64,000 bases of DNA from Burkholderiales bacterium (GTDB taxonomy: Bacteria > Pseudomonadota > Gammaproteobacteria > Burkholderiales > SG8-41): the NCBI GenBank assembly GCA_019751125.1, contig JAIENU010000083.1, positions 12,621 to 76,620 on the forward strand. Reading direction: 5' to 3'. Shown here piece by piece: positions 7,480 to 64,000 of the stretch. Both the position numbers and the translations under genes were made by a program. The notes under the pieces were generated by a model. The model was not told the DNA's origin. It saw only the letters and a list, made by a program, of their open reading frames with translations, and did not search any database. Within the stretch, counting starts at the first letter, position 1, and every line of letters starts with the position of its first letter.

Positions 7480-8499
7480 ATGAGCGCCACCCGCAACTTC
7501 ATCTGCAGCATCGTCTTCATCGACGTCGTCGAGTTCTCGAAGAAGTCGGTGGCAGACCAGATGCGGATCAAGGACGAGCTCAACCGGCTGCTGGCGCAGG
7601 CACTGAAGGATGTGCCGACCAAGGACCGCATCATCCTCGACACCGGTGACGGCGCGGCGGTGAGTTTTCTCGGCGACCCCGAGGAAGGCCTCTATCTGGG
7701 CCTCGCGCTGCGCGACGCGGTTGCCGCCGGCTCGGCACTCAGGCTGCGCACCGGCATCAATCTCGGCCCGGTGCGGCTGGTCAAGGACATCAACAACCAG
7801 CCCAACATCATCGGTGACGGCATCAATGTCGCGCAGCGTGTGATGAGTTTTGCCGAAACCGGCCAGGTGCTGGTGTCGCGCTCCTACTACGAGGTGGTTT
7901 CGGCACTGTCGTCGGATTACGCGAAGCTGTTCAGCTACGGCGGTCCGCGCACCGACAAGCATGTGCGCGAACACGAGGTCTATGTGCTGGGCGATCTGCC
8001 CACGCCGCAGCGCGCGCCGCGTGAAAAATCCGCGCATGCCGCGGCCTTCGAAAAACTCGGCAACACCGCCTCGACCGCGCGCCACGGCGTGATGCGCCGG
8101 CCCAAGCTGGCGACGGCGCTGACCGTGATCCTGATCCTGCTGGTCGCGGTATGGATACGGCTGACCTTCCGCGAGGACGCCGGGCTCGACCTGATCACGG
8201 AATCACCACAGGCTGAAACCCAGTACACCGCGCCGCCCAAGGCAAAACCCGCGCGAAAAGCCGAAGCCCCACAACCTGAACCGGCCACCACCACCGGCAC
8301 GGTGCGCCTGAACGTGCTGCCCTGGGGCGAGATCTACATCGACGGCCGCAAATTCGGCGTCTCCCCGCCGTTGCGCGATATCGCGCTGAAGCCCGGCCAG
8401 CACCGCATCGAAATCCGCAATCCGGGCTTTGCCTCCTATGTGCAGCTGGTCGAGGTCCGGGCCGGCGAAGAGATTAGAATCCGGCATCGCTTTCAATAA
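7480..8499 (+). CDS. Membrane-anchored class III nucleotidyl-cyclase-homology protein with C-terminal PEGA-like domain
   Basis: The N-terminal part is cyclase-like: 'FIDVVEFS', 'DTGDGAAVSF' and 'GINLGPVRLV..IIGDGINVAQRVMSFA'. One TM helix ('LATALTVILILLVAVWIRL') follows. The C-terminal beta domain, 'GTVRLNVLPWGEIYIDGRKFGVSP..IALKPGQHRIEIRNPGF', is typical of PEGA. Confidence 0.6.
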   Translation: MSATRNFICSIVFIDVVEFSKKSVADQMRIKDELNRLLAQALKDVPTKDRIILDTGDGAAVSFLGDPEEGLYLGLALRDAVAAGSALRLRTGINLGPVRLVKDINNQPNIIGDGINVAQRVMSFAETGQVLVSRSYYEVVSALSSDYAKLFSYGGPRTDKHVREHEVYVLGDLPTPQRAPREKSAHAAAFEKLGNTASTARHGVMRRPKLATALTVILILLVAVWIRLTFREDAGLDLITESPQAETQYTAPPKAKPARKAEAPQPEPATTTGTVRLNVLPWGEIYIDGRKFGVSPPLRDIALKPGQHRIEIRNPGFASYVQLVEVRAGEEIRIRHRFQ

Positions 8500-54876: not shown

Positions 54877-55087
54877 CGCAAAACCTTTCTCGACCGGAAC
54901 GGGTCAAAGTAGTGAAGGAGCGGCGGATTCGCGCACACGCAATGGCGCAATGTGGAACCGCACGCAATCAAACACCCGGAGAATAAATCACGCCAACTGT
55001 CAAGGCCAGCGGCAACGCGCAAGCACCACCAAACATCCGCAGAACGAACAAAAAAATCAGCAGCTTGCATGACCCGCAAAAATCCAC

Positions 55088-55115
55088 TTGCATGGTTCTG
55101 GCGGCGGCGCATACT
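55088..55115 (+). promoter_or_regulatory. Weak sigma70-like promoter candidate for nrdJ (-35 TTGCAT, 16-nt spacer, -10 CATACT)
   Basis: The hexamers were found by eye about 70 nt upstream of ATG 55183. This is speculative. Confidence 0.2.
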
Positions 55116-55182
55116 GCGCACCCAATACCCGTTATGCAGCGTGGCCAAATGCCGCGCCGCCACCCAACAAAGGCGCAGCCAC

Positions 55183-58071
55183 ATGAACGAATCGGTCCTC
55201 GGCAAAGACGTCACCCTCACCGAGCAGGAAATCAGCCGCGACACCCTCATCGAGAAATATGCCAAGGGCAACGAAAGCAGCATCGGCGACGTGCGCCGCC
55301 GCGTCGCCCGCGCCCTGGCCAAGGTCGAGGCCGAAGACCAGCGCGCATTGTGGGAAAAACGCTTCCTGCAGGCCCAGGAGGAAGGTTTCATCCCCGCCGG
55401 CCGCATCAATTCCGCCGCCGGCGTCGAACTCGCCGCGACACTGATCAACTGCTTCGTGCAGCCGGTGGGTGATTCGATCTCGGAAGTGGTCGACGGCAAG
55501 CCCGGCATCTACATCGCGCTGCAGGAAGCCGCCGAAACCATGCGCCGTGGTGGCGGCGTCGGCTACGACTTCTCGGCAATCCGGCCCAAGGGTGCAGAGG
55601 TCAAGGGCACCCAGTCCAACGCCAGCGGCCCGGTTTCCTACATGCGCGTGTTCGACCGCTCCTGTGAAACCGTGGAATCAGCCGGCTCGCGCCGCGGCGC
55701 GCAGATGGGCGTGCTGCGCTGCGACCACCCCGATGTCGAGGAATTCATCCACGCCAAGGACAAGGGCGACCTGACCAACTTCAACATCTCGGTTGGTGTC
55801 ACCGATGCCTTCATGGAAGCGGTGGAAAAGGACTGGGAAGTCGAACTGGTGCATAAATCTCGCCCCAATGCGCGGCAAATGGCCAAGGGCTCCTACCAGC
55901 GCGAAGACGGCCTGTGGGTCTATACCAAGGTGCGTGCCCGCGAGCTGTGGGACCAGATCATGCGCTCGACCTATGACCACGCGGAGCCGGGCATCCTGTT
56001 CATCGACCGGATGAATACCGACAACAACCTCAATTACTGCGAAAAGATCGAGGCCACCAATCCCTGCGCCGAACAGCCGCTGCCGCCCTACGGCTGCTGC
56101 TGCCTGGGCTCGGTTGACCTGACGCGCTTCGTGCGCAACCCCTTCGCCGAGAATGCCGGCTTCGATTTCGACCGCTTCGCCAAGGTGGTCGCAGTGGCGA
56201 TCCGCATGCTCGACAACGTGCTCGACGTCACCGCCTGGCCGCTGCCGCAGCAGAAGCAGGAAGCGGCCAACAAGCGCCGCGTCGGCCTCGGCTTCACCGG
56301 TCTCGGTGATGCGCTGGTGATGCTGCGCCTGCGCTACGACACGCCGGAAGCACGGCAGATGGCGGCGAAGATTTCGGAAGCAATGCGCGATGCTTCCTAC
56401 CGCGCCTCCAGCGACCTCGCCAAAGAAAAAGGCGCCTTCCCGCTGTTCAACGCCGACCTCTATCTGTCGGGCAGCAGCTTCGCCACGCGCCTGCCAGAAG
56501 ACATCAAGCAGCTGATCCGCAAGCAGGGCCTGCGCAACAGCCACCTGCTGTCGATTGCACCCACCGGCACGATCAGCCTGTCGTTTGCAGACAATGCCTC
56601 CAACGGCATCGAACCGCCCTTCTCCTGGACCTACACCCGCAAGAAACGCATGCCCGACAACACCATGCGCGAATTCGCGGTGGAAGACCACGCCTGGCGG
56701 CGCTGGAAGGCCGAGGGCGGCAACACCGAGAAACTGCCGCCGTGGTTTGTCACCGCGCTGGAGATTTCCGCCGGCGCGCATGAGGAAATGGTTGCCGCAG
56801 TCGCGCCGTATGTGGATACCAGCATCTCCAAGACCGTCAACGTGCCCGAAGATTATCCCTACACCGACTTCCAGGACCTTTATTTCAAGGCCTGGAAATC
56901 CGGACTGAAAGGGCTGGCCACCTACCGCCCGAACAGCGTGCTGGGTTCGGTACTGTCGGTGGAACCGACGGCCAAGGAAAAAGAGAAAAAAGCGCCGCAG
57001 GATTTCCGAGCCGACGACGTCAATCGCCGCATCCAGATCCAGTCGCTGCCGGCCCCGGTGCTGGCGAGCCTGCGCTGGCCCGGCCGGCCGTCGATGACCG
57101 CCGGCAATCCGGCCTGGACCTACATGATCGACCACCCGCACGGCACCTTCGCAGTGTTTGTCGGCCACGTCGAGAACGAGCACAACCACGCCTTTGAAGT
57201 GTGGGTCAACGGCAGCGAGCAGCCGCGCGGCCTCGGCGCGGTGGCCAAGACGCTGTCGATGGACATGCGCGCCGACGATCCGGGCTGGCTCAAGCTGAAA
57301 CTCGACACGCTGGCCAAGGCCGCCGGCGACGAACCCTTCGACATGCCCTTCCCGCCGCACGGCGAGATCAAGCGCATGCCCTCAGTGGTCGCCGCCTTCG
57401 CGCAGGTGCTGCGCTGGCGTGTTGACGAACTCGGCGGCCTCACCGCCCCGGGGGATCGCCTGTTCGACCAGTCGCCGACACCCGTGCTGGATGCGATGTT
57501 TGCGCCCAAGGAACCGAAGACCGGCACCGACGGCACGATGTCGTGGACCGTCGATGTGCTGAACCCGCGCACCGGCGACGACTTCGTGCTCGGCATCAAG
57601 GAAATCACGCTGCCCGGTGACGGCAGCAATGCCGGTGTCACCCGCCCGTACTCGATGTGGCTGTCCGGCGAATATCCGCGCGCCCTCGACGGCCTGTGCA
57701 AGTTGCTGTCGCTGGACATGCGGGTAATGGACCCGGCGTGGATCGGCATGAAACTGAAAAAACTGCTCGAGTTCCCGGAACCGCTGGGCGACTTCATGGC
57801 CTTCGTGCCCGGTGAACGCCGCCAGGCGACCTTCCCGTCCACGGTCGCGTACGTCGCAAGCCTGATCCTGCACCGCTACACCATGCTCGGCATCCTCGAC
57901 GTCAACGGCGCGCCGCTGACGCAGATGGGCATCCTCGCCACGCCGGAACGCAGCATCGAACCCAAGGTGATGAAAGGTTCACGCTGTCCCGAATGCGGCA
58001 ACACCACGCTGATCCGCAAGGACGGCTGCGACTGGTGCTCGGCCTGCGGCTACACCGGGACCTGCGGCTGA
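55183..58071 (+). CDS. nrdJ: Class II (adenosylcobalamin-dependent) ribonucleotide reductase
   Basis: 962 aa from ATG 55183. Matching regions are 'RINSAAG', 'LINCFV', '[20 protein letters not shown]' and '[10 protein letters not shown]'. The C-terminal tail is Cys-rich: '[28 protein letters not shown]'. The track ORF from 54952 is over-extended. Confidence 0.93.
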
Positions 58072-58091: not shown

Positions 58092-58124
58092 AAAACGGCC
58101 GGGAATTTTCCCGGCCGTTTTTTT
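58092..58124. terminator. Intrinsic terminator shared by convergent nrdJ and the TPS-like operon
   Basis: A 13-bp stem, aaaacggccggga/tcccggccgtttt, carries a 4-nt loop. It is followed by a T7 run on the plus strand; the minus strand has only TTTT. Confidence 0.7.
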
Positions 58125-58145: not shown

Positions 58146-58715
58146 TCAGTGCTGGCTGCCAGGCTGGCGGTACTCGCTGTAAACCCAGTAACCGAGCAGC
58201 CCCCGCCGCATGCGGAATTCGACTCGCGCGCCAGCGCCGCCGTAATCCGTACCTGAAAGCCCGATACAACAGCGGCCGTCATGGATGAAAGCCGTCTCGC
58301 TGAGTCCGAAGCGGCCCGATTCACGATGCACAGCCTTGACCTGCAGCACCCGCCACTGCCAGGCCCCCGCGGGTATCCAGCGGTTCACGGCATAGGCCAG
58401 CACGATGGCGGTGAAGCCGGCAACCAGCGCGGCCTGCAGCGCATAGAACAGGGCGTTGCGCGTATCGAACAGCAGCGGGCGGCGCTCCGTCACCGACTCG
58501 TCACGCAGCACCGCAGAAAGCGCCAGGACAAATCCCGCAACGGCGCCGACCAGCAGCGGCGTGGTCATCATCTGTCCGGCGCTGAAGGTGTTGCCATGCG
58601 GCACGAATACGCAGCCCGCCAGCGACAGTACGGCCAGCAGCGCGTACGGCCGTTCGCGCAACAGGCGCTTGATCAGCGCGGCATCAATATTCTGGAATTC
58701 AATGCCCTGGTTCAT
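58146..58715 (-). CDS. Hypothetical 3-TM membrane protein (last gene of the TPS-like operon)
   Basis: 189 aa, with a GGGAGGG ribosome-binding site 3-4 nt before the ATG. Three hydrophobic segments are present: 'YALLAVLSLAGCVFV', 'LLVGAVAGFVLALSAVL' and 'ALFYALQAALVAGFTAIVLAYAV'. A soluble tail of about 70 aa follows. No family was recognised. Confidence 0.55.
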   Translation of the reverse strand: MNQGIEFQNIDAALIKRLLRERPYALLAVLSLAGCVFVPHGNTFSAGQMMTTPLLVGAVAGFVLALSAVLRDESVTERRPLLFDTRNALFYALQAALVAGFTAIVLAYAVNRWIPAGAWQWRVLQVKAVHRESGRFGLSETAFIHDGRCCIGLSGTDYGGAGARVEFRMRRGLLGYWVYSEYRQPGSQH

Positions 58716-58739: not shown

Positions 58740-59789
58740 TCAGTATCCAATCCGGCCGCGGCTGAAACGTACGGCCAGCGCACCCAGTATCACCAGCGTT
58801 CCAAACGTCATCCACACCGCGAAACCCAGACCCTCCACCCGGAAGGTGTACATGATCATCGCGATCATCATGAACAGACAGAACAGCACGATGCTGACCC
58901 TCACCCCTTTCTGGTAACTCCGCTCATTGCGCCTCTGGTCGTAGTGGTCCGCGACGAAAAGCAGGCAAAACATCACCGCGCTCAGCAGCGCCGCCGCCAT
59001 TACCCAGGCTTCGGCGCCAATAAAGGTGATGGCCATGCTCTGGCCCGGCGCAAACTTGTTGATGAACGGAAAATACATCTGGCCTGTCCACAGGCAGTAG
59101 CCGGAATAGGCCACGAAGAACAGCGACAGCAGGATATTGATGACCCGCGTGTGCAGCGGCACTACATTCGGCGTGTAGTGAGCCGGGTTGATCGAACCGT
59201 AGGCCTCGTATTCCTTTCTCGCTTCGGCCAGGCTCAGGCCGAAATTGCGGCCCGGCACCACCTTGTCCGGCTGATATTCGCTCTGGCCATGATAATCGCG
59301 CCAGCCGCAGAGCTTGCATTCCTCGCCGGCACCACGCTGCGTCAACCCTTCCCAGCCACAGCAGGGACAGGGCATCCTGCCCGACGCTGGCTGGTTTTCT
59401 TCAGGATTGGCCGGCATCGACATCGCCTCCAGCGCCGGCACCAGCTCGGGATGCGCCGCACTCAATGGCTCCTGATCATCTTCGAAGACCCGCAACTCCG
59501 CTGCGCTTTCACGGTAGCCCATGGCATGGGCTTTCTCCGCGTCGGTCATCCGCCGCTGCCGTGTCTCGATGCCCACCTTCGACAGCAGCCCGGCCAAGCG
59601 CTTCGCCTCGCCGGCATCAAGGCCGATGCGCAGCAACTGCCAGCCGCCCTTGAGCCACAGGTCGGCCTGCGCCGCAGGCACCTGCAATTCGCGCTGCAGC
59701 AGCGCCGACGCGGCTTCGCGGGTCAGACCGGCACGCAGCTTGCCACTGATCAGCAGCATGAAACGGTCACTCAGCCACGGTGCACTCAT
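58740..59789 (-). CDS. CPCC-type zinc-ribbon + 4TM membrane protein, paralog A (with extra N-terminal domain)
   Basis: ATG 59789 is preceded by GGAGG 5 nt upstream; the track's GTG 59795 is 2 codons longer. The zinc ribbon is 'CPCCGWEGLTQRGAGEECKLCGWRD'. Other family features are 'GRNFGLSLAEA', four hydrophobic segments and the loop 'DHYDQRRNERSY'. The protein ends in Tyr. Confidence 0.7.
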   Translation of the reverse strand: MSAPWLSDRFMLLISGKLRAGLTREAASALLQRELQVPAAQADLWLKGGWQLLRIGLDAGEAKRLAGLLSKVGIETRQRRMTDAEKAHAMGYRESAAELRVFEDDQEPLSAAHPELVPALEAMSMPANPEENQPASGRMPCPCCGWEGLTQRGAGEECKLCGWRDYHGQSEYQPDKVVPGRNFGLSLAEARKEYEAYGSINPAHYTPNVVPLHTRVINILLSLFFVAYSGYCLWTGQMYFPFINKFAPGQSMAITFIGAEAWVMAAALLSAVMFCLLFVADHYDQRRNERSYQKGVRVSIVLFCLFMMIAMIMYTFRVEGLGFAVWMTFGTLVILGALAVRFSRGRIGY

Positions 59790-59840
59790 CACCACCTCCG
59801 GATAGCAGTCATTCTGCGGATATCACATAAGTAATTGTTT

Positions 59841-60740
59841 TTAATAACTATTTTTTGATCTCTTATAGACCACCACTGCCATCACCAGCAGGATCAGCCC
59901 CACCACCAGCAACACCGCCAGCACGCGCCAGTCACTGCCTGAATCCAGATACACATACGCGCCCAGCCACAGCACCAAGCACACCCACATCAGCATCTGG
60001 CACAGCTGCGCGATTTTTTCGTAGAGCGCCTCGTTGTTGCGTTTGTCGTAATGGTCAATGACCTGCACAGAAAACTGCAGCACACCAAACACCAGCGCCC
60101 CTGAAACCAGCCAGGCCTCAACACCGTGCAGCGTAAAACTCGATATGCCGCTGGATTGAGAACGGCTGATGTTGGGCAGAAACAATGCATCGCGCCACAA
60201 GCTGTAGCCGCAGTAGACCAGCACCAGCAAAGTCACCAGCGTTTCGGTGATGCGCTTTTTCAGCGGCAGCACATTGGGTACGTAACTGAGCGGCTCCAGC
60301 GTGCCCCGTTCAGCGAATTGTTGTTGCGCCTGCGCGAGGCTGTAGCCCCGGTTGCGGCCCGGAACCACCAGATCGGGACAGGACTCGTTCTGTTCAGCAT
60401 CGTCACGCCAGCCGCAGACCCGGCACAACTCGCCGGCACCACGCTGTTTCAGGGAACGCTTGCGGCAACAGGGGCAATCAATCACAGCACCGGCGATTGC
60501 CAGCTCGGCGCGCATCTCCACGCCAGCATCACGCAGCGCCCGCACATAACGCCCCATGGCCGCATGTTCAAGCCCGCCTTTGATGGTCTGCTCACGCCCC
60601 GACAACAGTTCCAGCGCCTTTGCCTCGGATATCCGCATCAGTTTCGCCAATGCAGCCGCCACCGCCTCGCGTTTGTGACCGTGCAGGATGCGACCGGTCA
60701 GCAGCAGGTCGTATTTTTCAACGGGCCTGGTCATGGGCAA
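59841..60740 (-). CDS. CPCC-type zinc-ribbon + 4TM membrane protein, paralog B (with extra N-terminal domain)
   Basis: The zinc ribbon is 'CPCCRKRSLKQRGAGELCRVCGWRD'. Other family features are 'GRNRGYSLAQA', four TM segments and the loop 'DHYDKRNNEALY'. The protein ends in Tyr. The start is TTG 60740 or ATG 60734. Confidence 0.7.
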   Translation of the reverse strand: MPMTRPVEKYDLLLTGRILHGHKREAVAAALAKLMRISEAKALELLSGREQTIKGGLEHAAMGRYVRALRDAGVEMRAELAIAGAVIDCPCCRKRSLKQRGAGELCRVCGWRDDAEQNESCPDLVVPGRNRGYSLAQAQQQFAERGTLEPLSYVPNVLPLKKRITETLVTLLVLVYCGYSLWRDALFLPNISRSQSSGISSFTLHGVEAWLVSGALVFGVLQFSVQVIDHYDKRNNEALYEKIAQLCQMLMWVCLVLWLGAYVYLDSGSDWRVLAVLLVVGLILLVMAVVVYKRSKNSY

Positions 60741-60749
60741 TATCGGCGA

Positions 60750-61394
60750 TCAGTATTCAATTTTCTGCGACCTGACATTGGTGATGATCCCGAACAGGAT
60801 CAGCAGCGCCATGAAACCCACCGCCAGCGCCAGCCATCCGCCACCGTAACGGTAGGCGGCAGCCACCATCGCCAGCCCCATGAACAAGCCCATCAGCACA
60901 AAACTGGCTTGCACCGCCCGCTGATAGACATGCTCGTTGCGACGTCGGTCATGGTGATCAACGATGGCCAGCACGCCGTACATCGCCCCCGACAACAGCG
61001 CCGCCGCCATCAGCCACAGCTCCACGCCCTCCAACTGGACAGGCCGCCGGTTGCCGCTGCCACCCGGCAGGATCATGGTGCCGAGCCACAGGCTGAAACC
61101 GCAGTAGGCGATCACCAGTGCAGCGATCACGCCGCTGAACACCCGACGCCCCAGCGGCACATGGTTGGGGATGTAGTCACCGGGCCGGATCGAACCATAG
61201 TGCTGATGGACCTTGCTCGCCGCGTTCAGGCTCAGGCCGTGGTTGCGCCCATCAATCACCTGATCGGCGTTTTGTTCATTCTGTTCAGGGTCATCACGCC
61301 AGCGGCAGCGCCGGCATTCATCGCCGGCACCGCGCCGCGACAAAGTCTTGTTGCCGCAGCAGGGACAGGACAGAAGTTCCGGCTGTTGCGTCAT
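60750..61394 (-). CDS. CPCC-type zinc-ribbon + 4TM membrane protein, paralog C (minimal form)
   Basis: 214 aa from ATG 61394; the track ORF from 61535 overlaps the tpsB gene and is over-extended. The zinc ribbon is 'CPCCGNKTLSRRGAGDECRRCRWRD'. Other family features are 'GRNHGLSLNAA', four TM segments and the loop 'DHHDRRRNEHVY'. The protein ends in Tyr. Confidence 0.7.
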   Translation of the reverse strand: MTQQPELLSCPCCGNKTLSRRGAGDECRRCRWRDDPEQNEQNADQVIDGRNHGLSLNAASKVHQHYGSIRPGDYIPNHVPLGRRVFSGVIAALVIAYCGFSLWLGTMILPGGSGNRRPVQLEGVELWLMAAALLSGAMYGVLAIVDHHDRRRNEHVYQRAVQASFVLMGLFMGLAMVAAAYRYGGGWLALAVGFMALLILFGIITNVRSQKIEY

Positions 61395-61423: not shown

Positions 61424-63001
61424 CTAGTAACGGAATGCCAAGGAAGCGTGTACGCGGTTGTCGCCCTTGTTGCTGGTGCCGGCGCCGTTCAACACCTGTG
61501 CCCAGTCGAGGGTTGCGCTGAAATTGCGCCGCCACTGCCAGCGCAGGCCGGCGCCGATGCCCGTCGCACTTTCGCGCGCCTGGGTGCCCGCGGCCGCCTG
61601 ATGGTTGCGCACCTGGCCGGCGTCGGTGAACAGCACTGCGCGCAGGCCGTCGGCGAGCAGCGGCGTGGTGAATTCCAGCGTGCCGAGCAGGCCCTGGTCG
61701 CCGGTGCCTTCTCGCTCTTCAAAACCGCGCACACCAGCCGAACCGCCGAGGCCGAACTGCTCGCCGGGAATCAGCGCATCGTTTGACACCTGTCCGCGCA
61801 TCTTCGCGGTGGCAATCCAGCCGCCCAGCGCCTTCGACCCTTCAAAGCCATAACGCCAGGCCTGCCAGTCCTTGCCGGCACCGGCGCGGTTGGCGGCGTA
61901 CGCGGCATCGGTATTGCTGCTGCCACCGCCAAGGTTGTGCGCGAACTCGAGGTTGCCGCGCAGGCCGTAATCGGCACCATCGAGCCGCCCGGTGTAGCGC
62001 AGCAGCAACGGCTGGCTGCGCACATCGGTGCCGATTGCCACGTTGTTGAACAGCACGTTGCTGCCAAAAAACCGGTTTTCGATGCCGAACTCCGCAGCAT
62101 GACTGTAACTGCCGAAGGGAAGCAGGCGATGTGTCCAGCGCAGGCCGTAGAACTCGCCGCTGCCGCTGACATTGAAAAAATTGGCGACCACGCCGGAGTT
62201 GCTGTCGGACTTGGTGTAGTAGCCGGACAGTGCGCCGTTCCAGGCATAGACCGGCGCGCGATAATAAATGCCGTACTGCTGCACGTCCTGACGATGGCCG
62301 TCGGGCGAGGTGGTGTAAGTCGCCGTCACCGAATGATCACGGTCAAACAGGTTGCTGTGCGACATCCCGATCCCCAGCCGCGTATGGCCCGACTGCTTGG
62401 TGCCGGTGTTGTCGAGGCTGGCGAAGAACTGCAGCGGCGCGGCATCGTCCACCTTCACCGCCGCATCCACGGTATCCGGCGTACGGCCCTGCTGGATGGT
62501 CACCGCGACCTGCTTCGAGGGATGGTCGTTGGCCAGCGCCTGCGCACGCGCAATCTCGCGCAAATTGGGCGTGACGCCACTCGCCAGTGCCGGCAGGCTG
62601 CGGCGGATGTTGTCGGTGCTGAAGGCCTTGTTGCCGCTGACATTGACGTTGTTCAGCTTGAAGGCCAGCACGCGCAGCGTGATCGTGCCGCGTGCATCCT
62701 GCGGCGGGATGATCACCCGCAGAAAACCGTAGCCGCGATCCTTCAGCGCAGTTTCGAGCGCGCTGGCAGCGGCCTGCAGACGGTCGATGGTCATAGCCTC
62801 GCCGGTGTACGGCGCGAGCAGCGATTGCGTGTCGGCAACAGACAGCGGGTTGTCGCCGTCAACGCTGTAAGCCGTGACCGCGAAGCGTGTGTCCTGCGCC
62901 TGCGCCGGATGCACCAGCGCCGCCAGCAACATCAGTCCTGCCCCTGATAATTTACGTAACACTTTGTTTTTATTGATAATTTTGTTTACCTGATGCTGCA
63001 C
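61424..63001 (-). CDS. ShlB/FhaC/HecB-family two-partner-secretion outer-membrane transporter (TpsB; POTRA + 16-strand barrel type)
   Basis: 525 aa. The signal peptide is '..LMLLAALVHPAQAQD'. The POTRA region is 'FAVTAYSVDGDNPLSVADTQSLLAPYTGEAMTIDRLQAAASALETALKDRGYGFLRVIIPPQD..GTITLRVLAFKLNNVNVSGN'. Barrel motifs are 'LDNTGTKQSGHTRLG', 'GGSAGVRGFEE' and a terminal 'SLAFRY'. Confidence 0.85.
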   Translation of the reverse strand: MQHQVNKIINKNKVLRKLSGAGLMLLAALVHPAQAQDTRFAVTAYSVDGDNPLSVADTQSLLAPYTGEAMTIDRLQAAASALETALKDRGYGFLRVIIPPQDARGTITLRVLAFKLNNVNVSGNKAFSTDNIRRSLPALASGVTPNLREIARAQALANDHPSKQVAVTIQQGRTPDTVDAAVKVDDAAPLQFFASLDNTGTKQSGHTRLGIGMSHSNLFDRDHSVTATYTTSPDGHRQDVQQYGIYYRAPVYAWNGALSGYYTKSDSNSGVVANFFNVSGSGEFYGLRWTHRLLPFGSYSHAAEFGIENRFFGSNVLFNNVAIGTDVRSQPLLLRYTGRLDGADYGLRGNLEFAHNLGGGSSNTDAAYAANRAGAGKDWQAWRYGFEGSKALGGWIATAKMRGQVSNDALIPGEQFGLGGSAGVRGFEEREGTGDQGLLGTLEFTTPLLADGLRAVLFTDAGQVRNHQAAAGTQARESATGIGAGLRWQWRRNFSATLDWAQVLNGAGTSNKGDNRVHASLAFRY

Positions 63002-64000
63002 ATATTGAGTATCGCCCCGTCACCGGCCCTGAAGGTATCGATCACCGAGCCGCTGCCACTGGGCAGCGGACGCGGCGTGCCGTCAAAACGCATGAAGTTC
63101 GGCACCACATCGAGCAGACGTACACGATCCGTCACTACCGCGGCATTGCCAGCCGCGACATCCACCGACTCCTCATCCTTGGTCACGCGCACCGCGCCGT
63201 CACGGACCCAGACGTAGAGGCCTTCTTCAACGGCTTTGTCCGTGCTGCCGAATATATTGTCCGCAGCCTTGATCGTAGGCAATGTTGTCAGACCGGGCAC
63301 ACGCACCGGACTGCCGGTTGAAGCCAGCATCTCGCCTGCACGCACGCGGCCACGGCCGACGATTTCGACCTCGCCTTCGGTCACTGCCACACTGGCCGGT
63401 TTGTTGTCCGCGTTGTCGGGATAACTCACGTTGGTCTTGCCGTCGGGGGCGCGATGCGTGACCTGCACGGTACCGGGTTTATCCGGACCCAGCGAAATCA
63501 GCGGACCACCGACGGCGGGAACAGGGCCGGGAAAAACCATGGGATCAACAAACATCACGTTAAAGGTTAAGGTCGTGGTCGTACCTTCAGGTCCGGCAAT
63601 TTCGGTGCGTGTCACAGTGCCGCCGGTGGATCTGCCGCCATGGGCGGTATTGACCACACTCACCACAGTTTCCACCCAGGTGGTGATCACGCGATCACCG
63701 ACACGGGTCACCGCCGGCTCGCCGGGCAAGGTCTGCAGCATGCCCGGCGGAAGAACGGTATCAGGCGCCCCCACAACGGCGATCAGGCCACCGGTAATAT
63801 CGTAGGAACGCACTGAATCGGCGGTGTCTTTCAGCTTGGCTTCGGCCGCACGACCGGCCGCTTCCGCGTCGGCGCGCACCTTGGCGTCAACCTCCGCTTT
63901 CGCGTCCACCAGTTTGTCGTCGACGGTTTTGGCTTCATTCACCGCAGCACGAACATCCTTTCTGGCCGCCCTTCGGTCTCTGTTCACCTCATCCTTGGTC
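62986..64000 (-). CDS. Partial (C-terminal 338 codons) protein upstream of the TpsB: coiled-coil segment + Thr/Val/Gly-rich beta region; candidate secreted partner
   Basis: The frame stays open to the window edge ('..TKDEVNRDRRAARKD..'), so the GTG at 63987 is probably not the true start. A coiled-coil-like stretch reads 'VDAKAEVDAKVRADAEAAGRAAEAKLKD'. The beta-rich body contains 'GTVTRTEIAGPEGTTTTLTF'. The C-terminal part, 'EGLYVWVRDGAVRVTKDEESVDVAAGNAAVV', is reminiscent of FecR-type beta domains by eye only. Its stop overlaps the tpsB start by 16 nt. Confidence 0.5.
   Translation of the reverse strand, partial: TKDEVNRDRRAARKDVRAAVNEAKTVDDKLVDAKAEVDAKVRADAEAAGRAAEAKLKDTADSVRSYDITGGLIAVVGAPDTVLPPGMLQTLPGEPAVTRVGDRVITTWVETVVSVVNTAHGGRSTGGTVTRTEIAGPEGTTTTLTFNVMFVDPMVFPGPVPAVGGPLISLGPDKPGTVQVTHRAPDGKTNVSYPDNADNKPASVAVTEGEVEIVGRGRVRAGEMLASTGSPVRVPGLTTLPTIKAADNIFGSTDKAVEEGLYVWVRDGAVRVTKDEESVDVAAGNAAVVTDRVRLLDVVPNFMRFDGTPRPLPSGSGSVIDTFRAGDGAILNMCSIR

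Follow-up and report, generated by a model that had tools for sequence, protein, structure and literature searches.

In nearly every description, the immunity proteins of contact-dependent inhibition (CDI) and other polymorphic-toxin systems are free cytoplasmic binders or, where the toxin is a pore-former, small membrane proteins. The immunity proteins of pore-forming colicins span the membrane three times (E1-type) or four times (A-type), and CdiI of E. coli EC93 is likewise an integral membrane protein. Here we describe a locus in which a ribbon of the soluble kind is joined to a membrane module. It lies in a 64,000-nucleotide stretch (the window) of contig JAIENU010000083.1 from a Burkholderiales bacterium (assembly GCA_019751125.1), where three tandem open reading frames (ORFs) on the minus strand, in the order C-B-A (positions 61394 to 58740), each encode a CPCC zinc ribbon (Cys_rich_CPCC) followed by four transmembrane (TM) helices. 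The ribbon and the secretion context of these genes are of known kinds; the ribbon-membrane fusion has no description in the literature searched, and the membrane family that it brings to light is unannotated. Our tentative reading, to which we give a probability of about 0.4, is that A, B, and C are inner-membrane-tethered immunity proteins of the CdiI/CPCC type. If this is true, immunity can be stationed at the site of toxin entry.

The CPCC ribbon has a documented partner. Entries 8EY3 and 8EY4 of the Protein Data Bank (PDB) are titled 'CDI immunity protein' and 'CDI toxin-immunity protein complex from E. coli O32:H37', and the chain in question (8EY3/8EY4_I) is named 'Cys_rich_CPCC domain-containing protein'. 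The toxin in the complex, chain A of 8EY4, corresponds to the last 88 residues of a VENN-containing CdiA. On E. coli plasmid pO113, a CdiA ORF of 2582+ amino acids (aa) with a VENN motif carries a toxin domain 97% identical to 8EY4 chain A, and a 61-aa CPCC gene begins at the final base of the cdiA stop codon. The same toxin domain (62-73% identical) is C-terminal in a TPS/Fil_haemagg CdiA of B. multivorans, a PAAR-Pyocin_S protein of Photorhabdus, and a hemagglutinin-repeat protein of Rhizobium, and in all three the start of a short CPCC gene lies 4 nt ahead of the toxin-gene stop. The pairings are located at positions 7717-8168 of locus L009 (E. coli pO113), 5744-6210 of L105, 5738-6189 of L106/L107, and 5714-6177 of L011. 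The toxin domain, of ~88 aa and with the consensus NAYxHWxKH...TMFKP..G.EYWNKQ, has no Pfam model. Because of the 8EY3/8EY4 complex and the repeated gene pairing in four unrelated hosts, CPCC is the cognate immunity family of one polymorphic-toxin domain, found on both CDI and PAAR/type VI secretion system (T6SS) carriers. CPCC genes also occur away from this toxin. Two B. multivorans loci (L104 and L105) hold the same 69-aa CPCC gene at one and the same chromosomal site, preceded by a 3066-aa CdiA in one of them only, so that the second strain keeps the immunity gene as an orphan without CdiA. Arrays of small genes that include CPCC genes occur in Ralstonia, P. aeruginosa, and Listeria, close to FHA/ShlB genes, orphan nuclease fragments, or other immunity genes. 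Full-text searches found no paper stating that CPCC (PF14206) is an immunity family, and the sole textual lead to 8EY4 was a passing remark in PMC13068155. Despite the PDB complex and the toxin pairing in four genera, CPCC genes are named only 'cysteine-rich protein', which amounts to an annotation gap.

Paralog C (60750-61394, minus strand, as are all features of the triplet) is a protein of 214 aa made of the ribbon (61176-61370) and the membrane module (60753-61175), which runs from YIPN to the C-terminal KIEY and includes the motif DHHDRRRNE (60933-60959). Its favoured start is ATG 61394, which follows a G-run and lies 29 nt past the tpsB stop; the ORF can be extended to 61535, but the extension would overlap tpsB and the homologues are 214 aa long, for which reasons ATG 61394 is preferred. 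Paralog B (59841-60740; 299 aa, or 297 aa from the favoured ATG 60734) has an N-terminal domain (60501-60740), the ribbon (60285-60479), and the four-TM module (59844-60284), with DHYDKRNNE at 60030-60056. Paralog A (58740-59795; 351 aa, or 349 aa from the favoured ATG 59789, which is preceded by GGAGG) consists of an N-terminal domain (59556-59795), a 61-aa linker, the ribbon (59178-59372, checked in the translation, as was that of C), and the four-TM module (58743-59177), with DHYDQRRNE at 58923-58949. The favoured starts, chosen from the start-region sequences, agree with the lengths of the orthologues.

The first-pass annotation, made from the DNA sequence alone, had likened the N-terminal ribbon to the Cys_rich_CPCC domain, and this likeness survives a profile hidden Markov model comparison, a sequence search against solved structures, and a comparison of predicted folds. 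The three copies score 44.7, 47.7, and 47.0 bits against PF14206, for which the cut-off is 24.5, with E-values between 1e-11 and 1e-12 (A, 1.1e-11; B, 1.3e-12; C, 2.3e-12, over residues 9-70). By sequence, B and C match the PDB chains 8EY3/8EY4_I at E-values of 3e-7 to 6e-8 (B to 8EY4_I, 2.9e-7; C to 8EY3_A, 5.5e-8). The predicted ribbon of B, modelled with a predicted local distance difference test (pLDDT) of 62-72 in this region, superposes on 8EY3 in Foldseek with a target TM-score of 0.80, a root-mean-square deviation (rmsd) of 1.8 A, and 38% identity. All three copies, and 17 of 17 fusion-family sequences, have the full cysteine set of CPCC and CxxC. What the annotation had missed is that CPCC is a solved CDI immunity protein (8EY3/8EY4). 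Its remark that the domain is normally found in small soluble proteins agrees with the best 120 matches listed, all of which are single-domain proteins of 56-105 aa.

The motifs that had been picked out by eye are present in every copy: the full ribbon motif CPCC-x4-L-x2-RGAG[ED]-x-C-x2-C-x-WRD, GRNxGxSLxxA, Y[TVI]PNxxPL, Y[CS]G[YF][CS]LW, G[AV]E[AL]W, DH[YH]D[QKR]R[RN]NE..Y, and a terminal Tyr, the last being frequent in the fusion clade though not invariant. In an end-to-end alignment of the three proteins 56 columns are invariant, and B and C are 35% and 43% identical to A. The likeness of the triplet as first noted is thus real and could not have arisen by chance at any plausible rate. Each copy has its own orthologue in a Burkholderiales metagenome-assembled genome (MAG), with ~81-85% identity over the CPCC and membrane core, and the duplication is therefore old, as had been proposed from the divergence of the copies; the same identities and separate orthologues rule out a recent tandem duplication or an assembly artefact. 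Hydropathy gives four helices per copy. With 3-5 Lys/Arg residues in the DHYD loop and 1-2 in the outward loops, both ribbon and DHYD loop are predicted to be cytoplasmic and the module to be inserted N-in/C-in, in line with the topology first suggested. AlphaFold2 (AF2) models of B (14 sequences, pLDDT 75) and C (150 sequences, pLDDT 86, above 90 in the membrane part) place the parts in the order optional N-terminal domain, ribbon, and four long helices, with a beta-hairpin between helices 1 and 2 whose loop, bearing 1-2 Lys/Arg, would lie on the outside face.

As reported initially, A and B have an N-terminal domain in common that C lacks (32% identity over 88 aligned residues). In B it is predicted to fold as beta-alpha-alpha-beta-alpha-beta, resembling the C-terminal domain (CTD) of ribosomal protein L7/L12 or ClpS (model pLDDT 79-91); Foldseek aligned it with 1CTF, the L7/L12 CTD, at a target TM-score of 0.78 and an rmsd of 2.5 A over 70 columns, and with many ClpS entries at TM-scores of 0.55-0.67. 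While the predicted fold is alike, sequence identity to L7/L12 CTD and ClpS is only 15-21%, and there was no Pfam Ribosomal_L12 or ClpS match at E-values up to 1. A word-indexed search for relatives of the domain gave two weak matches and missed even known members. The domain is present or absent within paralog clades.

A profile built from the membrane part of nine fusion proteins was searched against 1.84 billion cluster representatives (clusters at 50% identity) and gave 574 matches at E <=1e-3, 336 at E <=1e-10, and 8 at E <=1e-30; since the profile derives from the fusion clade, the window proteins match this family by construction. The typical member is a stand-alone protein of 110-200 aa that aligns to profile positions 1 to ~107, covering three helices, and then ends. 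The module had been introduced as a four-TM unit, which holds for the window copies; the family core, however, has three helices, and the fourth is a minority addition, matched to the end of the profile by only 19 of 159 retrieved proteins, the window proteins being among the four-helix forms. The family consensus reads y.PN.ip...R ... Yg..gl..ddl..Pgkrg.....hlhG..aw.m ... vvDHYD.R.NE..Y. Among 147-150 independent representatives, conservation is 90% or higher at residues P, N, R, D, H, Y, D, R, N, E, and Y, all of which lie where helices 1 and 2 reach the cytoplasm; the Pro of the hairpin is also nearly invariant. N-terminal extensions are varied (median 43 aa), with CPCC in 4 of 147 representatives and other zinc ribbons (TFIIB-type, RanBP, DZR, Zn_ribbon_3, Zn_ribbon_4) in a handful, and some members have long C-terminal or N-terminal additions. 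In one protein of 424 aa (P0017) a single chain holds two complete YxPN/DHYDxRxNE modules with further helices between them, an arrangement that suggests dimers or higher oligomers as the working form of the module. In a separate sub-family (P0019, P0039, P0049, P0053, P0110, and P0125) an N-terminal module is followed by more helices and a conserved C-terminal domain of ~170 aa (AP.W.Y..DDF..G...IR..L...GF...CYG.L) that has no Pfam match.

The membrane part stands outside any characterised family, an outcome in favour of the first-pass annotation: it has no Pfam, NCBIfam, or PADLOC model, and its structural model has no significant match among solved folds (best Foldseek E-value 0.4, TM-score up to 0.37) or among viral predicted structures. 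PADLOC also returned no match for A, B, C, the 189-aa product of the last gene of the operon, or six stand-alone members. Pfam DUF998, DctQ, and Claudin_3 were considered as the parent family and rejected, as they gave sub-threshold matches only. The tetraspans of the claudin/TARP/PMP22 type, which head the non-significant Foldseek list, likewise have four helices, both termini on the inside, and a first outward loop that forms a beta-hairpin, but at E-values of 0.4 or worse, TM-scores of 0.2-0.3, and rmsd above 10 A this likeness is no evidence of homology.

In a genome collection with one genome for each of 185,579 species, 191 membrane-family matches were confirmed, mainly in Beta- and Gammaproteobacteria, with some in Bacteroidota, a Verrucomicrobiae MAG, and a Synechococcus MAG. 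A neighbourhood survey retained 80 loci, in 63 of which ORF calls recovered the membrane-family gene. In these 63 the stand-alone gene occurs as one copy, flanked by unrelated housekeeping genes; the 228 neighbours at +/-1 and +/-2 in 63 genomes yielded no cluster found at more than two loci, and the 117 neighbours at +/-1 matched 86 different Pfam families, mostly housekeeping. The fusion with CPCC is rare, with about a dozen clusters at 90% identity among 5.8 billion sequences, and no description of it was found in the literature searched. It provides a handle on the membrane family, whose several hundred clusters share a strikingly invariant cytoplasmic motif and are annotated in none of Pfam, NCBIfam, and PADLOC.

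Judging from gene order and spacing, the triplet appears to share one operon with a fecR-like gene, tpsB, and a gene for a protein of 189 aa, a two-partner secretion (TPS) setting that had gone unmentioned in an otherwise sound account of the triplet. On the minus strand, as are the other operon genes, tpsB (61424-63001) encodes a TpsB-type outer-membrane transporter with two POTRA domains and a ShlB barrel (ShlB, E 2.7e-26; POTRA_2, E 3.5e-12). The gaps in the series tpsB-C-B-A are 29, 9, and 45 nt, and no strong terminator precedes the bidirectional intrinsic terminator at 58092-58121, which has a perfect 13-bp stem with A and T runs and faces the convergent nrdJ gene. Upstream of tpsB, and overlapping its start by 16 nt, is the C-terminal part of a FecR-domain protein (62986-64000), with no in-frame stop before the window end. 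Over its last 157 aa it shares 71% identity with the C-terminus of a 1099-aa FecR-domain protein of the related locus L001; the ~180 residues before this conserved tail cannot be aligned with L001, pointing to a hypervariable middle. The last gene of the operon (58146-58715) encodes the 189-aa protein, in which about three hydrophobic helices are joined to a Cys-containing soluble C-terminal part; it has no Pfam, NCBIfam, or PADLOC match, is kept at the same position in L001-L003, and is absent from L095.

In Burkholderiales MAG GCA_019744975.1 and two metagenome contigs the order is tpsA (with a TPS domain), fecR-like gene, tpsB, C, B, A, small membrane gene, nrdJ. A PhdYeFM antitoxin/PIN toxin pair lies between the fecR-like gene and tpsB in L001/L002 (7609-8414) and is absent at the corresponding site of the window (~62990). 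Pairwise identity clusters the cores into four paralog types. Between tpsB and nrdJ the window and L001 carry C-B-A-D; L099 has two fusion copies in tandem. In L095, tpsB is followed by the gene of an RDD-ankyrin membrane protein, then by an A-type copy that lacks the N-terminal domain and a C-type copy that has it, and finally by nrdJ. The interval between tpsB and nrdJ thus differs among close relatives in copy number, order, and N-domain content, a cassette-like turnover such as immunity arrays typically show. The fusions of Usitatibacteraceae are single-copy and lie away from TPS or toxin genes.

Several genes next to members of either family were noted in passing. Membrane proteins in which a Pro/Ala-rich linker connects an RDD domain to C-terminal ankyrin repeats are encoded directly before fusion genes in L095 (2803-4734) and L097 (314-1582), and in Methylophilus sp. 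42 (L015, 5516-5932) the stand-alone membrane-family gene has an RDD-family gene before it as well. Ankyrin repeats are a common scaffold of immunity proteins. Upstream of the tandem pair in L099, a partial gene (1-579) encodes a pilin-like, Cys-bracketed C-terminus (ISWSCHGENIPIQYIRKIC).

If A, B, and C are membrane-tethered immunity proteins, their four helices would insert N-in/C-in and present the ribbon, together with the L7/L12-like domain in A and B, at the cytoplasmic face. There the fused ribbon would bind and neutralise a toxin domain delivered by CdiA or by polymorphic toxins of the PAAR/T6SS type, on the model of the free CPCC proteins of about 60 aa that neutralise the 8EY4-type toxin. 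The YxPN/DHYDxRxNE module may serve to hold the ribbon where toxins emerge from the inner membrane, and the three old, diverged copies, probably co-transcribed with the two-partner-secretion transporter, could cover different toxin variants. We regard this as the most economical reading because the only documented role of the ribbon is to neutralise a toxin, the genes lie in a secretion operon, and the array changes in a cassette-like manner. Several observations weigh against it. The 8EY4-type toxin was not found in the 64-kb window or in 11 related loci with a four-sequence profile, for which the positive control gave 2e-51, and tblastn likewise gave nothing in the window or in related loci. 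The TpsA of the syntenic L001, from which this partner was judged since the window organism's own tpsA lies beyond the window, has no PT-VENN or toxin-domain match in its C-terminal 732 residues, and a direct reading of its last 500 residues shows repeat-like sequence up to within ~60 residues of the stop. The Usitatibacteraceae fusions, which are the closest out-group, are unlinked to TPS genes, and the linkage is therefore not general. The module forms an independent and strongly conserved family with nearly invariant cytoplasmic polar residues, whose stand-alone members have no toxin or immunity neighbours, and it is clearly more than a generic anchor. The ribbon is the least diverged part among the paralogs (48-53% identity, against 34-40% in the membrane part), contrary to what diversification driven by specificity would give, and the A, B, and C types are retained as orthologues across genomes, which would also fit a hetero-oligomer. 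It is on account of the missing nearby toxin, the TpsA that is unlike CdiA, the out-group loci, the conserved ribbon, and the more-than-anchor module that we put the probability no higher than about 0.4.

In the main rival explanation, many of the same facts are read with the membrane module as the functional unit, its inner-membrane activity being for example that of a channel, of a small transporter, or of a platform for docking or signalling, with the ribbon and the L7/L12-like domain as interchangeable cytoplasmic adaptors or sensors, paralogs that may hetero-oligomerise, and a proximity to tpsB that is incidental or lineage-specific. We think it somewhat less probable than tethered immunity, though much speaks for it: the 574 clusters are mostly stand-alone proteins of 110-200 aa, single-copy among housekeeping genes and with no conserved partner; the residues conserved at 90% or more are all on the cytoplasmic side; N-terminal extensions vary and include other zinc ribbons; the double module of P0017 hints at oligomerisation; A, B, and C each persist as an orthologous type in different genomes; and the Usitatibacteraceae fusions lie outside TPS loci. 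Yet it comes with no biochemical lead, fold match, or family model, and it leaves unexplained both the recruitment of a ribbon whose only documented role is toxin neutralisation and the variation of copy number, order, and N-domain content among close relatives. Were it true, interest would move to the membrane family, and the present finding would be a pointer and not an answer. An extension of tethered immunity to the module itself, by which the YxPN/DHYDxRxNE proteins would be a hitherto undescribed, widespread family of inner-membrane 'gatekeeper' immunity proteins acting where contact-delivered toxins cross or leave the inner membrane, strikes us as improbable. On that reading the window proteins would combine two layers of immunity, protection at the level of the membrane and a toxin-binding CdiI ribbon, and the stand-alone members, in many Proteobacteria and Bacteroidota, would be orphan immunity genes that have so far gone unrecognised.

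Two further roles are less likely than that of a self-sufficient membrane module. The triplet and the 189-aa protein might be inner-membrane accessories of the TpsA/FecR-like/TpsB system, with a part in the regulation or sensing of secretion or in the cytoplasmic handling of the exoprotein. Co-transcription with the fecR-like gene and tpsB, and the recurrence of the arrangement in the Burkholderiales MAG, a metagenome contig, and L095, point in this direction, as does the fact that FecR-type proteins are usually inner-membrane signal transducers. The closest out-group fusions, however, are unlinked to TPS genes, a toxin-antitoxin pair between the fecR-like gene and tpsB of the MAG indicates that the block is not a tight unit, copy number and type vary, and we know of no TPS system that needs such components; an accessory role is accordingly unlikely. 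A small multi-helix membrane module coupled to a variable sensor domain is also a common design of defence effectors, and the sporadic distribution of the family (191 matches in the 185,579-species collection) would suit membrane-disrupting effectors of an anti-phage or abortive-infection system triggered via the zinc ribbon. That possibility is very slight, given that neither the window proteins nor the stand-alone members have a PADLOC match, that no viral fold match was obtained, that the neighbours are housekeeping genes and not defence islands, and that no partner sensor or enzyme gene is present.

The remainder of the window is ordinary chromosome, with genes for TamB, BipA, IlvD, an enoyl-CoA hydratase, a SET-domain protein, and the class II ribonucleotide reductase NrdJ. 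A search for DNA-level repeats, RNA families, and tRNAs gave none. The NrdJ of the related MAG (L001, 13331-17362; 1343 aa) contains an intein with a LAGLIDADG endonuclease, which is lacking from the window nrdJ (54952-58071, plus strand) and from the L095 copy (956 aa). The window nrdJ ORF begins at an upstream GTG, and its start is probably near 'MNESVLGKD'.

Set beside the described systems, the locus combines features of several. Colicin-type immunity proteins and CdiI of EC93 are, like the window proteins, small inner-membrane proteins of three or four helices often encoded beside toxin or secretion genes. They lack a soluble immunity domain, whereas the window proteins have a ribbon, and neither the window nor the family proteins match a Pfam colicin-immunity model; the likeness is one of design only. 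As in cdiBAI loci, a ShlB/POTRA transporter gene lies directly upstream of the triplet, with a TPS-domain exoprotein gene further upstream in the syntenic MAG, and small CPCC genes elsewhere are bona fide cdiI genes. In cdiBAI, however, the immunity gene comes right after cdiA, while here the order is tpsA, fecR-like gene, tpsB, and three CPCC-TM genes, so that the CPCC genes follow tpsB and a 1099-aa FecR-domain protein takes the cdiI position; CdiA, moreover, ends in a toxin, and the relative's TpsA shows no PT-VENN or toxin domain. Known CPCC genes overlap the end of their toxin gene, in contrast to the window triplet, which has no cognate toxin gene nearby. With CdiI of E. coli O32:H37 the window proteins have in common the CPCC...CxxC ribbon followed by W-x-D-D...Q and the G-x-N-x-x-SL-x-x-A helix, with the acidic WEDD of the CdiI type replaced by WRD[DY] and 'EPGxYEIC' by 'RGAG[DE]xC'. 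Members of the O32:H37 type are free cytoplasmic proteins of 56-105 aa; in the window the same ribbon is an internal domain of four-TM proteins of 214-351 aa.

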